Source: Planctomycetota bacterium
Lineage (GTDB): Bacteria > Planctomycetota > GCA-002687715 > DRQF01
Assembly (NCBI GenBank): GCA_036479435.1
Contig: JAZGFI010000075.1
Location: forward strand, 1 to 22,862
Direction of reading: 5' to 3'
Length of the DNA: 22,862 nucleotides
Part shown: positions 15,001-21,000 of the stretch, in pieces
Layout of the letters: each line of letters opens with the position of its first letter
Position numbering within the stretch: the stretch's first letter is position 1
Program-made: the position numbers

Positions 15001-18000
15001 CAAAGCTGCGCTTCGCGTTTGTGGGTACCACTGTCGTCGCCACGGCTGATAAAACGCGCACCTTGTTGGCAAATGCGGCGCAGGGCGTCCGCGACCTTCA
15101 TGCCTTTGACGCCCGCCGGGTCGTTCTTCGGACCGGCGATGAGGAAATCGCTTTGCATGACGGCCCGGCGCCCAAGGCCATGCCCGGCCGCCACAAAGGC
15201 TTCTTCGGCTTCGCGAGAGTGAGCGAAAACCGCATCAACGTCGCCGTTAGCGCCGAGCTTCAAGGCAGCCCCGGTGCCCACCGCGAGGACGATCACTTCG
15301 CAGGACTCACTTTTTTCAAAGAGGGGGATGAGTTGGTCGGCGATCCCGGAGTCACGCATCGAGGTGGTGATGGCGATGCGCAGGATCTTGTCATCGGCCC
15401 CGTCCTGGCAGCCCCAAAGGCAGCTCAGAACGAGGCCGACAGCGGCAGCAAAGCCTAAATGCCGGATTTCAAAAGCATCTCGTCGAAGGACTTGCATACC
15501 CGTGAGTGCACCTCTTCGAAGAACTCGACCGTGTTGAAGTGTTCAAGATCAACTTTGTCGTACTTGCGGTGAACTTCAAGGGGCATCCGGTAGTCCTCGG
15601 GGCTAAAGCCCTGAGTCCTTTCCAGTTTAAGACCGCGGAGGAAGCAGCGCTTGACCGTCTCGGTGAGCTGCTCTTCGCTGATCTCAAGGCCGGTCATGAG
15701 CTGGATGGCTTCCGCCATCTTCTCGTTGGGCAGGGCCGCAAACTTGCAGATGCCAATGACGTCGTCGCGCATGATCGAACAGCCGCGCTCAGTGATGGCT
15801 TCAACCCAGTAGTCGGCGCCCGCTTCTTTTTCGAAAACGTAGAGCAAATAGGTCTTCATCGACATGTGCCCGCCGGCCAAGGCCCAGGGATAGCCGGGGT
15901 TGAACTGCGGTAAGTAGGCGGGGAACTCGACGCCCTTGCAGTGCATGGCGTAACCGGTTTCACCGAGCGCTTCCGAAAGACGTTTCACGCCCTGGCCGAG
16001 CAACGGGAGTTTGCCCTTGGCCATTTCGGTGATAGCCCGTTGCGCGCCTTCGTAGTTGCCGTACTCGATGTAGTCCGGGATCAAAGACGGCTCGCCCGCC
16101 TCTTTTTTGCGCTTGTTGTACTCCATGGCGTAAGAGATCGTGACGCCGCAAGAGATGGAATCCATGCCGTAGTCGTCGACCATGTCCACCAAGTGAACGG
16201 CTTGATGGATGTCGAAAATCCCGATGTTCGAAGACATCAAGTTCAAGGGCTCAAAATCGAGCTTCGCGTGGAACTTGCCGGGCTTTACTTTGCCCTTGAC
16301 CTCTGTGCGGTCGTAGACGTTTTTGTGACAGGAAATGCCGCAGGCGTAGCAAGCTTCGTCTTTGACCATCAACTCGCCCGCCGCTTCGACGTTGGCGCGG
16401 TACATCGGCACAGAAACATCGGTGCCGGTGGGGTTGAAGTTGTTTTCAGGCATCGCGTGCAGCGGGTTCAAGGCCGTCATGTTGGCCCAAGTGCCGCCGC
16501 CGCCATCGCCTTTTTTTGCGTCGCGAAAGCGCTGGCTTCCGGGCCCGCGCGCGACTTCCATGTTGATCTCTTTGAGGCCCGCGACTTTGACGCCCGGCTT
16601 GGGGTCTTTCATGTCCGCCACGATGGCGAGCAAGTTTTTGGAACCCATCAAACCGCCCATGCCCCCGCGCCCCGCAAAGCGCGACTTCATGTCGCCACTT
16701 TTGAGCTGGTTGAGGGTAGAGAGGCCGATCGCCGCGAAGCGGACTTCTTCGTAGTTCTCGCCGGCGGTGCCAATCGCCGCGAAGTGAGCATCGGGATACT
16801 GGGTGTAGAGGTGTTGGATCTTTTGATTGATCGTCATTCCCTGCAAGTGATGCGCGGGCTTAAACTGGAACGTCGGTTGGCCGTTGGCTTCGTCGTGAGT
16901 GATGTGCAAGTAGACCGGCATGATGGCCTGGCCCGTGAAAATAACTTCCTCCACCCCGAGGTGCCGAAGCTTGGTGCCGAATTTGCCACTGCCGGTCGAC
17001 CACATCGCCGAGGGCTTGTCACTGAGGGAGGCCTTCAGCGGTGAGTAACCGTGGAAGTAGGTGCGTAGGCCGGTCATGAACTGAGTGCCCGACAAAATGC
17101 CGAGGTTCATGATGAGCGGCGCGGCTTTGTCGTAGGGATCTTCAACCTCGTAGTCTTCGAGAATCTTGAATCCGCGGCCGATGCCGCCCAAGACATCTTC
17201 GTAGTCGGCACACTCGACCGTGTCTCGCTTGACGAAATAGGTGCTGAGGTCGATCCGGTACTGTTTGATGCTGAATTCGCGGGGTGACTTGAGATCAGCC
17301 GCCGCGACCGGAGCGGGAGCGGATTTCTTGGCCGGTGCCGCTTCGGATTTCTTAGCAGGTGTGGCGGCGGGCTTTTTCGCCGGAGCTGCCCCCGGCTTAG
17401 CGGCCGGAGTCGTCTCCGGCTTGGCGGCTGGTTTCGCGGTCGCTTTGTTCGGGGCGGGCTTTTTAGGCTCCGGCTTTTTGACTTCAGGTGTTTTGTCGCT
17501 CGGCTTCTCGACGGCCGCCACCGGCTTTGCCGCCGTCGGGGTCTTTGACGTGCGCTTCGTGGTTTTTCGGTCCTCGGAGTCGCCTGTCGCCGTGGCTGGT
17601 TTCTCAGCGGGCTTCTTCTCCGGGTCCGGGGCCTTTTGCGAAATGATCGTCTTCGGCGGTTCTTCGACCGCTGTTGGCATTCGCTCGGCGCTGGTTTTGG
17701 CGACTTTCTTTTTGGCCACCTTCACGACGACTTCGATTTTGGTTCGACCCATCTTGATGACCAAACCGTTCTTCAATGGATGACGATTGCCTTTCCCGAG
17801 AACCGGGCCTCCGACGATGACCGTCTTGTTGGAGCTGCCGACGTCTTCGATTTCAAGGCCACCGCTTCCCTCCAAAATCACGGCGTGGCATCCGGAAACA
17901 TTCTGGTCATTAACGCAGAGTTGGTTGCTGGGGTCGCGCCCGATGGTGGTGCCAGCTTTGATGGCAACGTTGCGGGGGGCTTGATCGGGTTCGTGGAGGC

Positions 18001-21000
18001 GAAAGGTGTATTCAGACATCAAAAGTCTCTATCGCTCGGGGTGCGTGCCGGGTTGGATCTGAGGTTGAGGCGAAAAACGGCGGCCCCATATCGAAGGGTG
18101 CCGCCGTTTGAGATTCAAAGAGTGCAGGTAATGGAGCCGAGGCGAGCCGTCAGCTTCATGTTTTCGCTGTAGTCGATCGGGATCGAGATGATCGCCGGCC
18201 CCTCTTGCTGGAAGGCCTCTTCGAGGGCGGGCAGCAGGTCTTTGGATTTGGTGACATGCTTGCCCCAAGCGCCAAAGCTCTCCGCCAACTTCACGAAGTC
18301 GGGGTTGGTGAAAGCCAGGTCGGAGTGCTTGCCAAAGCTCGCCTGCTGCTTCCATTTGATCAGGCCGTACTCGCAGTCTTCCCAGATCAGCTGGACGATG
18401 TTGAGTTTGCGGCGCACCGCGGTCTCAAGGTCTTGGATGTTCATCATCGTACCGGCATCACCACCCACAGCGAGGATGCGGCGATCGGGAAAGACCAACT
18501 TCGCGCCCATTGCGCCTGGGAAGGCGAAACCCATCGTGCAAAAGCCGTTCGAGATCAGGCAAGTGTTGGGCTCGTCGCACTGGTAGTAGCGGCCGATCCA
18601 CATCTTGTGGGCTCCGACGTCGCTCAAAATGATGTCGTTTGGTCCCAAGACCTGACGGCAATCCCAGAGTGCTTTTTGGGGAGTGATCAAGCCGTCGGTG
18701 TCGGCGTCGGCATGTTCGGCGAAGTCGGCGAGCATTTCCTTGCGCAACTTGGCGTGCACGTTGATGTCGAACAGGGGCTTGTCGGGCATACCCTTGTTGA
18801 GTTCGTAGATCGAATCCGCGATGTCGGCGACCAATTCGACATCCGGGTGATAGAGGCTCTCCACTTCGGACTCTTCGAAGTCAATGTGGATGATCTTCTT
18901 GTCGCGCCCGGTGTTCCAAAACTGCGGGTGGTACTCGACGAGGTCGTAGCCAATGGCAATAACCAAGTCGGCTTTTTCCATTTCGCAAGAAACAAGGTCG
19001 CGAGCCTGTAGGCCCATCGTGAATAAACAGTGCTTGTCATCTCGCGCAATCGCGCCCTTGCCCATGAAGGTGCTGACGACACCGATACCAGATTTCTCGG
19101 CGAAGATCCGAAGCTGCTTTGTGGAGCGCTTGCGAATCGAGCCGTTGCCCGCGAGGATCAAAGGGTGCTTGGCATTTTTGATCAGCTCGAGCGCTTGCTT
19201 GACCGCTTTGTGGTCGGCGCCGGGGCGGCGAACCTTGCGCGGCTCCATCGGGACCAAGTCATCCTTCACTTGCGAGTCGGCAAGGTCTTCGGGAAGCTCG
19301 ATGTGCGTGGCCCCCGGTTTTTCGGCGGTAGCGACTTTGAAAGCCTTGCGCACCACTTCCGGAATGTTCTCCGGTTGGCGAACACTGAAGTTCCACTTGG
19401 TGATCGGCCGGAACATCTCAATGCAGTCCATGTTCTGATGCGATTCCTTGTGCAGTCGATGGGTGTCGGCTTGTCCGGTGAGGACGACCATGGGCGCGCG
19501 GTCCATGTTGCCGTCGGCAACGCCCGTCACCAAGTTGGTGGCGCCTGGCCCGAGTGTCGCCAAGCAAACGCCGGGCTTGCCCGTCAAACGCCCGTAGACG
19601 TCGGCCATAAACGCGGCGGCTTGTTCGTGGCGGCAGAGAACGAAGTCGATGTCCGATTCCATCAAGGAAATCATCACATCGGCGTTCTCTTCACCCGGGA
19701 TGCCAAAGATGTACTCGACCCCTTCGGTCTCTAAGCACTTAACGAACAGATCTGATGCCTTCATGGCTCAAGTCCTCTCATGGCGATTAACGGTTAGAAG
19801 GTGGCGCCGGTGCCACCAACCAAAGTCGCGGATCACTGCACAAGCGCTGGAATTACACTATTTAGGGCCCTTTGTGAAGGCCCCATGCGCTATCGGCGTC
19901 TTCTCGTCCATCGGGAGAGTCTAATTTGCAGGATCGCGAACTCGTTCTTTTTGAGTCCTTCGCATGGCGACAGCTCGAGGCCATGGCCCTGGATTCTTGG
20001 CCCCAAGAGGCAAGCGGATGGCTCATTGGTCCCCGCTCCCAGAACGCCTTTGAACGGATCACGCGCCTTGATTGCGCTGAATCGAGCGATGCCCGCTCCG
20101 ACTTCTTCGTCCTCAACCCCGTCCACTACGCCCGGGCCCAATTCGACGCGCGCCGCCAGGGGCAGGACATTTTGGGAATCTTTCATTCACACCCGAACGG
20201 CGCCGCCCACCCTTCGGCCACCGACCTAAGCTGGTCCCGCTCAATGTTCGGCCGCGACCGCGGCTGGCTAGAAATCATTGCCGCTGTGAATGAACATCGC
20301 CGCCTCGACCTCAGCTGTTGGCGCCTCGACGACGGCGTCTACCGCCAATGCAACTTCCGAGTTTCCTAACCCTCGACTTTTTCACTCGGAAATGAAATCA
20401 CGCTCACTCCCCGCGGGGGCCCCTTAGCCACTAACACTCGCAGTTTGGCAATGACTGCATGCCGCCGGCCTCGTGCGAAAGAATAGGCGGCTTGGTTCTT
20501 GGTGAGGACGCCAACAAACGACCCGGTAGGCCGCAGATTTCTTCGCCGTCTTGGTCGTCATTTGACGGATGATCGAGGAGTAGTCTACAATCTCAGGTCC
20601 GTTTGGCGTTGTTTGCAAGTTCGCGTTTTGCCCATCTCTGGGTTGACTGGTTATGCGGACGCACAAGAAGCATACATCCCTGTTGGAGGTTCCAAGTGCG
20701 CAAGAATCTCGTCGTCATGATCTCGGTCGGCGTTCCGCTATTGATTGTGCTGGCCTGTTCCGTACTTCTAAGAAGAGCCTTCGAAAAGCCGATAGAGGAG
20801 GTTCAAAGCGTCGCCGAGCAATCCGTATCAGACTCCAACAAAGAAAACCCGTTCGACTACGAACCGATGTTTGTTGCGAAGCCGCTGCAAGCAGTCATAG
20901 GACAAAAAGACCAAGTCCGTGCCTCGGACTTGTTGCTTGATGATCTCTCTCACGTAGTCGAGATCACCTCAGATAGCGACGAAACCATCTACTTCTGGCG

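Follow-up and report, generated by a model that had tools for sequence, protein, structure and literature searches.

The locus considered here raises the question of why, in one Planctomycetota family, an FHA domain and an aldehyde:ferredoxin oxidoreductase (AOR) are encoded in a single chain. What has been described of the regulation of tungsten enzymes of the AOR family concerns transcription and the supply of metal. To our knowledge, no member of the family is known to be under post-translational signalling control, in agreement with our searches, and our literature search found no paper describing an FHA-AOR fusion or a link between an AOR and a kinase. Ser/Thr-kinase networks are very large in Planctomycetota, and an FHA reader on the sole AOR of a lineage offers a concrete case in which to ask whether such networks reach ferredoxin-dependent pterin enzymes. 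The fusion hints that a tungsten-type AOR is wired to protein-kinase signalling in this family. The features of the window, the whole 22,862-nucleotide stretch of DNA that was analysed, are given in Table 1.

Table 1. Positions of the fusion gene, its parts and its neighbours in the window
Feature	Position	Strand	Remark
FHA-linker-AOR gene, 854 aa	15455..18019	-	stop codon included
FHA domain, residues 1-100	17720..18019	-	Pfam core 24-91 at 17747-17950
Pro/Ala/Lys-rich disordered linker, residues ~101-245	17285..17719	-	
Thr109 codon, candidate phospho-acceptor	17693..17695	-	putative role
AOR-family body, residues 246-854	15458..17284	-	AFOR_N 16613-17260, AFOR_C 15569-16498
CxxCxxxC motif (C557, C560, C564), [4Fe-4S] ligands	16328..16351	-	aligned to 1aor C288/C291/C295
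Catabolic-acetolactate-synthase-like ThDP enzyme, upstream of FHA-AOR	18115..19764	-	NCBIfam PRK08322
Terminator-like hairpin and U-run, between ALS-like and FHA-AOR genes	18072..18109	-	dG -32.6 kcal/mol, z -3.46
TupA-like binding protein	14649-15497	-	TupA 182 bits, below equivalog cut-off
TupB-like permease	13947-14648	-	TupB 153 bits, below equivalog cut-off
ABC ATPase, Tup-type transporter	13372-14157	-	downstream of FHA-AOR
MoaD-like-GG::MoeA fusion	1079-2614	+	cofactor gene
MoeA::PBP_like	2611-4596	+	cofactor gene
HIBADH / tartronate-semialdehyde-reductase-like dehydrogenase	4674..5579	-	

The fusion gene is one unbroken open reading frame with its ATG start at position 18019, its orthologues share the same start point (MSE/MPE/MTE), and it gives the sole AFOR_C match across the 5.47-Mb genome. 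The initial annotation had described an FHA domain, a linker and an AOR body in one protein, and this architecture was recovered in full, with Pfam matches to FHA at residues 24-91 (E 4.8e-13, 49.8 bits, gathering cut-off 20.7), AFOR_N at 254-469 (E 6.2e-37, 127.7 bits, gathering cut-off 29.8) and AFOR_C at 508-817 (E 1.6e-41, 143.2 bits, gathering cut-off 27). Low-complexity linkers are prone to error, and in one orthologue (G011) a frameshift in the linker places the FHA and AOR parts in different frames. Nevertheless, it is scarcely credible that assembly or gene calling had joined two separate genes, since one open frame runs through the whole gene in the window and in six other genomes, and eight further fused clusters come from several sources. 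In addition, Logan contigs from three runs of one sample, which may be the source sample itself, cover positions 15300-18200 with no mismatches or indels.

The AOR body was mostly modelled with pLDDT above 90 in the AF2 model, which we judged by per-residue pLDDT, and it matches 1aor both in sequence (E 1.5e-28) and in fold (Foldseek, 1aor_A, E 7.5e-33, TMt 0.80). It shares the three-domain fold, the Cys ligands, the pterin Asp motifs and the active-site Glu with P. furiosus AOR (1aor) and with the solved AOR-family enzymes 9g7j, 8c0z, 1b25 and 9q1t. The fourth [4Fe-4S] ligand is C758, corresponding to C494 in the P. furiosus enzyme, and all four Cys residues are invariant in 74 of 74 aligned rows. 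AOR enzymes bind the pterin through two Asp-x-x-Gly-x-Asp/Cys motifs; here these motifs, D615..D620 and D753-G756-C758, are invariant together with E590, and every row keeps E590, H718 and D615/D620. The active-site residues of P. furiosus AOR are E313 and H448; the equivalence of the invariant H718 to H448 comes from extending the 1aor alignment by hand. The protein differs from P. furiosus AOR in its low identity (~24% in the structural alignment), in its added FHA domain and leash, and in belonging to a sharply separate subfamily, for which only 54 representatives were found at E<=1e-30 among 1.84 billion proteins. The finding defines this unstudied AOR subfamily. No genes for AorA/AorC-type subunits lie beside the FHA-AOR gene. 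The body is predicted to be a working aldehyde:ferredoxin oxidoreductase, and we hold this as tentatively as the whole explanation of which it forms part.

The FHA part shows nine strands with pLDDT 93-98 over residues 1-100, and its fold agrees with solved bacterial FHA domains at TMt 0.84-0.87 in Foldseek, the closest being those of the pThr-binding proteins Rv0020c, DgcB, GarA and OdhI. The canonical pThr pocket of FHA domains consists of Gly-Arg, Ser-x-x-His and Ser/Thr-x-Asn. The corresponding residues G27-R28, S42, H45, S62 and N64 are invariant in all 11 fused rows, and by this pocket motif the domain is predicted to be a phosphothreonine reader. In the least saturated pair of orthologues (G007 and G008), dN/dS of the FHA part was 0.044/0.404, or 0.11, whereas the linker gave 0.18 and the AOR body 0.04; the FHA part of the fusion is under purifying selection.

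The initial annotation had reported conservation at the family level, and this was confirmed: all eight other genomes of the family match FHA-AOR, seven of them with an AOR body at 57-65% identity. The fusion itself is present in all eight, across four genera (g2-g5), with one copy truncated by the end of its contig and another frameshifted. The claim that a protein word search gave no second cluster did not hold, as we found eight further clusters with FHA, AFOR_N and AFOR_C at 53-67% identity. Phylogenetically, the fused proteins group in a single clade (support 99), nested in a broader Planctomycetota AOR subfamily whose members are mostly unfused. The fusion has a single origin and has been retained since, and because all fused genomes are kin, it counts as one evolutionary event. 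A second Planctomycetota clade carries an N-terminal module of another, helical type on a similar leash. The 150 best representatives included no further AOR bearing a signalling domain. Fe-ADH::AOR and AOR::HPS/OMPdecase proteins (P0283, P0344, P0370) likewise join an AOR and a second module in one chain, but their added module is a catalytic partner whereas that of FHA-AOR is a signalling reader.

Here, we need to ask whether the fusion is neutral, an incidental event in an FHA-rich genome that left the FHA domain without a role. The genome holds 25 FHA matches, the linker is poorly conserved, and the split frames of G011 would fit such a history. However, retention throughout the family, the invariant pocket and the low dN/dS make it very improbable. 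Furthermore, the genome encodes 23 FHA proteins, and FHA-AOR is the only one of them in which the domain is fused to a metabolic enzyme. The other 22 include no metabolic enzyme, and ten of them belong to signalling (kinase, sigma-54 activator, cyclase or phosphatase), indicating that the fusion does not stem from a general scatter of FHA domains over enzymes. Since the pocket is intact and under purifying selection, the origin is single and the genome contains 56 Pkinase matches, a link between Ser/Thr kinases and the AOR is the natural reading. All 56 lie outside the window, and neither the window nor the related loci that we scanned contain a gene for a kinase, a phosphatase or a further FHA protein.

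How such a link might work depends largely on the linker. Residues 106-230 have pLDDT below 50, and among orthologues the linker ranges from 75 to 363 residues with a net charge from +19 to -17. This disorder and the variability in length and charge fit tethered docking better than a rigid allosteric gate. We therefore suggest, with a probability of roughly 0.45, that the FHA domain serves as a tethered docking module on the sole AOR of the family, and that pThr binding alters the attachment or self-association of the enzyme. According to this explanation, an AOR in the ancestor of the family would have gained an N-terminal FHA domain on a long disordered leash; a Ser/Thr kinase would phosphorylate a target Thr, to which the FHA domain would bind; and the binding would change how the enzyme attaches or self-associates rather than act on the active site by way of a fixed contact between domains. 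The architecture, the intact motifs, the linker disorder, the single origin, the purifying selection and the conserved gene pair described below are established, whereas a dependence on phosphorylation, the identity of the ligand, any effect on activity, and the metal and substrate of the enzyme are inferred.

The first candidate ligand is Thr109 of the same protein, bound in cis or between subunits in the manner of DgcB or Rv1747, and the second would be a phosphorylated partner protein. A Thr lies 10-13 residues past the last FHA strand in 13 of 13 fused sequences and is followed by Glu in 10 of them, within a region that is otherwise unalignable; this conservation rests on a register read from the sequences, the MAFFT alignment (A3) containing no single invariant Thr109 column. 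Several points speak against the docking explanation: this dependence on the register, the lack of a consistent FHA-type +3 motif after Thr109 in the fused sequences, the position of Thr109 only about 10 residues from the C-terminus of the FHA domain, a short reach for binding in cis, the missing kinase gene in the window and the related loci scanned, and the fact that the fusion amounts to a single evolutionary event. By analogy with DgcB, Thr109 is a candidate self-ligand. DgcB of Bdellovibrio is reported to be an FHA-GGDEF protein activated by a phosphorylated stretch of its own chain (PMC6733907), and its structures 6hc1 and 6hbz were among our fold matches. Both proteins carry an N-terminal FHA domain fused to an enzyme, and FHA-AOR has its candidate Thr in its own disordered region; in DgcB, the ligand is N-terminal of the FHA domain, the linker is short and the output is that of a signalling enzyme rather than of a redox enzyme of metabolism. 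Rv1747 of M. tuberculosis is described as an ABC transporter with two FHA domains and a disordered linker bearing pT152 and pT210 (PMC8339232). The combination of an FHA domain, a disordered Thr-bearing linker and an attached or served machine is common to FHA-AOR, Rv1747 and T6SS Fha/TagH (10.1101/2023.12.21.572528); residues 9-230 give a match to TIGR03354, the TagH profile, at E 1e-16, which is below the profile cut-off. Unlike Rv1747, FHA-AOR has one FHA domain and a soluble oxidoreductase as its payload.

The same data bear on a more direct mode of control, in which pThr binding by the FHA domain would turn AOR catalysis, or insertion of the pterin cofactor, on or off by contact with the catalytic body. 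The FHA domain is intact and selected, FHA-fused enzymes under regulation exist (DgcB, PMC6733907), and the organism has three COX1 matches, so that a ferredoxin enzyme sensitive to oxygen could require switching. We nevertheless consider such a gate rather unlikely, because the linker is disordered, varies five-fold in length and flips the sign of its charge across orthologues. Moreover, only six residues of the AOR body are fixed specifically in the fused clade and none of them is Thr, indicating that no co-evolved docking surface or surface patch is seen, which counts against the docking explanation as well. The gating by kinase signalling proposed in the initial annotation accordingly survives in part: the intact, selected FHA domain, the 56 Pkinase matches and the single origin speak for a signalling role, whereas the variable linker argues against a rigid gate and no kinase gene is linked. 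The tethered FHA domain, the Thr-bearing leash and the AOR, which is probably dimeric, could also make up a multivalent unit that a Ser/Thr kinase drives, by phosphorylation, to assemble into clusters or condensates, possibly with the neighbouring ThDP enzyme, although this is distinctly unlikely. If true, the assembly would be a metabolon without a membrane, switched by a kinase, in which a reactive aldehyde is kept together with a tungsten enzyme sensitive to oxygen while the organism also respires oxygen, and the clade with the helical module would represent a parallel solution.

The ThDP enzyme upstream of the AOR gene had been called a decarboxylase, but it is closest to catabolic acetolactate synthase (ALS), with 755 bits to PRK08322 (cut-off 509) and matches to a catabolic ALS in the PDB (E 2.9e-122) and to AlsS (E 2e-110). 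The proposed route from 2-oxoacid to aldehyde to acid rested on the decarboxylase call and loses its footing. The ALS-like gene has the same orientation as the AOR gene and lies directly upstream of it in all seven loci of the fused clade examined, compared with adjacency in only one of seven unfused loci. We suggest that the AOR may work together with this enzyme, on an aldehyde that the latter makes or uses, and the gene pair is a first clue to the substrate. It could also be that the FHA domain binds the ALS-like enzyme independently of phosphorylation, as GarA and OdhI do with KGD and OdhA, and that the complex hands on the aldehyde. GarA and OdhI, whose FHA structures are within our fold matches, are stand-alone regulators, themselves under kinase control, of enzymes metabolising 2-oxoglutarate in central metabolism, including a ThDP enzyme, and GarA acts by direct binding (PMC5448819, PMC10415282). 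A ThDP enzyme is likewise the conserved neighbour of FHA-AOR; GarA, however, is a small free protein of Actinobacteria, whereas this FHA domain is covalently fused and its binding to the ALS-like enzyme only putative. A phospho-independent adaptor is in our view unlikely, as none of 80 loci with ALS-like relatives in other phyla has a nearby AOR and a terminator-like hairpin, which the consensus scan did not detect, separates the two genes in the window.

In two lineages a signalling domain is attached to one member of the ALS-AOR pair: in one lineage it is FHA, on the AOR, and in the other a cNMP-binding domain, borne by the ALS-like enzyme, which in G102 adjoins an unfused AOR of the same subfamily. 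With the cNMP-domain enzyme, signalling reaches the pair by a second and independent route.

Tungsten is probably the metal of the AOR, judging from the context of TupA/B-like, MoeA::PBP_like and MoaD::MoeA genes. The TupA/B-like genes, the ABC ATPase, the ThDP enzyme and the two MoeA genes named in the initial annotation are all present, the decarboxylase identity being the part that changed. Besides the window, the Tup transporter adjoins the AOR gene in one of six related loci, and the Tup-AOR linkage is not conserved within the fused clade. MoeA-type cofactor genes lie near the AOR gene in three of six fused-clade loci and three of seven unfused loci; the MoaD-like-GG::MoeA and MoeA::PBP_like genes travel with the AOR subfamily. 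Finally, a HIBADH-like gene lies within a few kb of the ALS-AOR pair in all six related loci.

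The predicted protein that joins an FHA domain to an aldehyde:ferredoxin oxidoreductase (AOR) body contains an FHA domain at residues 24-91 (E 4.8e-13), AFOR_N at residues 254-469 (E 6.2e-37) and AFOR_C at residues 508-817 (E 1.6e-41), all above the Pfam gathering scores. An AlphaFold2 model was built from a 74-row alignment and gave a mean pLDDT of 85.6. Residues 1-100 form a β-sandwich with pLDDT of 93-98, residues 106-230 remain below 50, and the AOR body, which begins at about residue 240, is mostly above 90. When the model was compared with solved structures using Foldseek, the N-terminal part matched the bacterial FHA domains of Rv0020c, DgcB, GarA and OdhI (TMt 0.84-0.87), and the body matched the P. 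furiosus AOR (1aor_A; E 7.5e-33, TMt 0.80) as well as other solved AOR-family enzymes. Across 15300-18200, zero differences or indels were seen in the Logan contigs of three runs, all from a single sample that may itself have yielded the assembly. The open frame, the Pfam matches, the model, the structural matches and the Logan contigs all bear out the fusion to a full AOR body proposed in the initial annotation, and an artefact is extremely improbable.

Coordinates of the features discussed in the text (contig JAZGFI010000075.1 where no other locus is named)
Feature	Locus	Position	Strand	Details
MoeA gene with MoaD/ThiS-like domain		1079-2614	+	N-terminal domain SAMP1-like, E 1.4e-11
FHA-linker-AOR ORF		15455-18019	-	ATG at 18019, stop 15455-15457, one open frame, 854 aa
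Hairpin and U-run between ALS-like and FHA-AOR genes		18072-18109	-	dG -32.6 kcal/mol, z -3.46; right after ALS-like stop
ALS-like gene		18115-19764	-	NCBIfam PRK08322 'acetolactate synthase large subunit', 755 bits (cut-off 509)
JAB/MPN peptidase gene		19926-20369	+	160 bp past ALS-like gene
ORF, 552 aa		20603-22261	+	no Pfam/NCBIfam match; GC drops from ~0.58 to 0.51
FHA-cytochrome gene, same genome	L063 (G000:C195)	43766-45742	-	659 aa, N-terminal FHA and multihaem cytochrome c
FHA and AOR parts in genome G011	L018	8241-10632	-	NCBI calls AOR alone (P0012, 598 aa)
ALS-like gene of genome G102	L036	10724-12790	+	689 aa, C-terminal cyclic-nucleotide-binding domain, E 8.3e-20

The AOR-family part is otherwise complete. 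In the sequence alignment with 1aor, C557-x2-C560-x3-C564 fall on C288/C291/C295, E590 aligns with the active-site Glu and D615..D620 with the first pterin motif, and all of these residues, together with C758, H718 and D753/G756, are invariant in the 74-row subfamily alignment. With residue roles and numbers following P. furiosus AOR, C758 is the fourth cluster ligand, and H718 presumably corresponds to the P. furiosus site by an extension of the 1aor alignment made by hand. Since no second AFOR_C match occurs in the genome (5.47 Mb, 92% complete), this protein is its sole AOR. At the sequence level the subfamily is well separated from the studied AORs, at approximately 30% identity, and it is patchy in the phylum: of 201 evenly sampled genomes, 13 match at E<=1e-30, a count that includes the present genome and one relative, and just 54 representatives reach that threshold in a search of 1.84 billion. 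The long forms scanned among the 150 best representatives were fusions to the catalytic partners Fe-ADH and HPS/OMPdecase, with no AOR fused to a signalling domain among them. FHA-fused enzymes and AOR fusions are both known kinds, and the FHA-AOR protein is a variant of both; a full-text search of the literature outside subscription journals found no paper that treats this fusion or the AOR subfamily of Planctomycetota.

The survey of the order covered 23 genomes, with eight others from the same family and 14 from the other three families. All eight relatives match the gene, and the AOR body is present in seven of them at 57-65% identity, the remaining one (G010) having the FHA part alone at a contig end; the family-wide conservation reported earlier therefore holds. 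The FHA domain lies in the same open frame as the AOR in six relatives (811-1063 aa). G011 differs in that the reading frame changes within the linker, so that FHA and AOR do not share a frame; either the gene is truly split there or the low-complexity DNA was misassembled. As was also reported, the 14 genomes of the other families yield a single AOR-part match (29% identical) and no orthologue. A word search across 5.8 billion proteins, which had been said to give no second cluster at E<=1e-25 with residues 1-300, turned up eight further clusters with FHA, AFOR_N and AFOR_C (53-67% identity, 773-1056 aa), some of which are titled just 'FHA domain-containing protein [Planctomycetes bacterium]', and more than 100 unfused Planctomycetota proteins of about 600-640 aa (56-69% identity). 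In a FastTree of 121 AOR bodies, the nine fused proteins and three N-terminally cut calls form one clade with support of 99, indicating that the FHA join happened once. The fusion is thus real, conserved and of single origin.

Five proteins (P0029, P0037, P0043, P0060 and P0099; locus L024 in genome G143) whose N-terminal module is of another, helical kind group in a separate clade of the same tree (support 100). The module spans about 125 residues (MTPEIEK...) and is followed by an Ala/Pro/Lys leash like that of the fused clade. It has no Pfam match, an ESM Atlas search with residues 1-125 gave no usable match, and its AlphaFold2 model is helical but weak (mean pLDDT 57). A microcompartment-type encapsulation peptide was considered as an idea and dropped.

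Residues G27-R28, S42, H45, S62 and N64, the canonical phosphothreonine-pocket positions, are invariant in 11 fused sequences. In the pair with the least saturation (G007/G008), dN/dS was 0.11 in the FHA domain (0.044/0.404), 0.18 in the linker and 0.04 in the AOR body, and more distant pairs, which are near saturation, showed the same tendency. Since the pocket is intact and under selection, we infer that the FHA domain reads a phosphothreonine. The genome holds 56 Pkinase matches, and its 25 FHA matches are spread over 23 proteins. Apart from the FHA-AOR protein, these comprise four kinases, three GAF-sigma-54 activators, one GAF-cyclase, one GAF-SpoIIE phosphatase, one trypsin-like protease, two CAP-domain proteins, one multihaem cytochrome c and nine with FHA alone, so that the AOR is the sole metabolic enzyme in the set. 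This singularity, together with the conservation and the selection, makes a neutral fusion very unlikely. The cytochrome c protein (L063) is a second redox protein with a phospho-reader.

The linker cannot be aligned between orthologues; it is Pro/Ala-rich, ranges from 75 to 363 residues, and its net charge spans +19 in the query to -17 in orthologues. The Lys-rich appearance of the query copy is therefore not conserved, and a DNA-binding basic tail, which the value of +19 had prompted us to consider, was rejected. Because such a floppy leash varies in both length and charge, the FHA domain would have no fixed position on the enzyme, which favors leashed docking rather than a rigid gate. Based on these observations, we tentatively suggest, with a probability of about 45%, that the FHA domain acts as a docking module, in which a phosphorylated target would provide the binding site for the FHA domain and binding would alter the partners, the place or the self-association of the enzyme. 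A direct gate on activity or on cofactor insertion, close to the kinase control initially proposed, appears unlikely. A co-evolved docking surface on the AOR body was also rejected, as the fused clade has six clade-specific fixed residues there in all, none of them Thr.

For docking on the leash, a possible ligand lies within the protein. A Thr is located 10-13 residues past the last FHA strand in all 13 sequences, usually as [K/R]-T-E (Thr109 in the query; the register was read by eye, with no invariant MAFFT column), and its conservation puts the leash of the protein itself first among the candidate ligands. DgcB is reported to have its own phosphorylated tail as FHA ligand (PMC6733907) and Rv1747 to use phosphothreonine sites in its linker (PMC8339232); by analogy, Thr109 may be a self-ligand. 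A second linker motif, KTE(P/A)QPIHPY(G/A), occurs in eight of the 13 sequences and is missing from the query, which has 'PPKTII' alone at that site.

The upstream ThDP enzyme had been regarded as a decarboxylase. Its PRK08322 assignment and its best solved relatives, the catabolic acetolactate synthases (ALS; E 2.9e-122; B. subtilis AlsS 2e-110), instead mark it as catabolic-ALS-like. In all seven related loci (72-84% identity, gaps of 16-190 bp), the ALS-like gene is the immediate upstream neighbour and has the same strand, and the gap is just 16-24 bp in three related genomes. A consensus promoter and terminator scan gave counts no higher than shuffles and missed the hairpin found between the two genes in the query. 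Six related loci have long flanks. All six carry a tartronate-semialdehyde-reductase-like dehydrogenase no more than a few kb away, a JAB gene is near in three and MoeA::PBP_like in three, two of them with an adjoining MoaD::MoeA. TupABC is near in only one, so that the oxoanion importer is not a conserved neighbour within the clade. Among seven unfused relatives, MoaD::MoeA and MoeA::PBP_like are adjacent in three, a free MoaD-like gene occurs in three, and TupABC and the ALS-like gene in one each (the latter in G102). These counts indicate that cofactor supply travels with the subfamily, and that an ALS-like partner typifies the FHA clade. Among 80 loci of ALS-like relatives in other phyla (51-65% identity), none has an AOR within about 6 kb, and the pairing was thus rejected as a general rule. 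From the TupA/B-like and MoeA::PBP_like genes, the metal is predicted to be likely W.

The steady presence of the ALS-like gene bears on another explanation, in which the FHA domain would grip the neighbouring ThDP enzyme independently of phosphorylation; GarA is the model for such a grip (PMC5448819, PMC10415282). We consider it quite unlikely. An aldehyde might be set free by the ALS-like enzyme from its hydroxyalkyl-ThDP intermediate, or might serve this enzyme as an acceptor. The genome has three COX1 matches (haem-copper oxidase genes) and one POR-type gene. For an oxidase-bearing organism it would be reasonable to place a ferredoxin enzyme that is probably sensitive to oxygen under conditional control.

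In G102, the ALS-like protein carries a cyclic-nucleotide-binding (cNMP) domain, and its gene is divergent from the adjoining unfused AOR gene of the same subfamily. Such ALS-cNMP proteins (about 675 aa; P0122-P0183) account for at least 57 of the 120 clusters listed, mostly from Planctomycetota. Three other genomes bearing an unfused AOR also have an ALS-cNMP gene, but the two genes are on separate contigs. Contigs may be shared by four cluster pairs of ALS-cNMP with AOR and by one of FHA-AOR with ALS-like, judged only by equal longest-contig size and verified for G102 only. The ALS-AOR pair has thus gained a signalling input twice, as cNMP on the ThDP enzyme and as FHA on the AOR.

Two further observations concern the flanking genes. 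The MoaD/ThiS-like domain of the MoeA gene ends in ...AVEGG (residues 92-93), directly ahead of the MoeA part, and looks like a sulfur carrier needing release after Gly-Gly by a JAB protease. The 552-aa ORF shows an HNH-like 'DHIVP...N' pattern by eye at its C-terminus.
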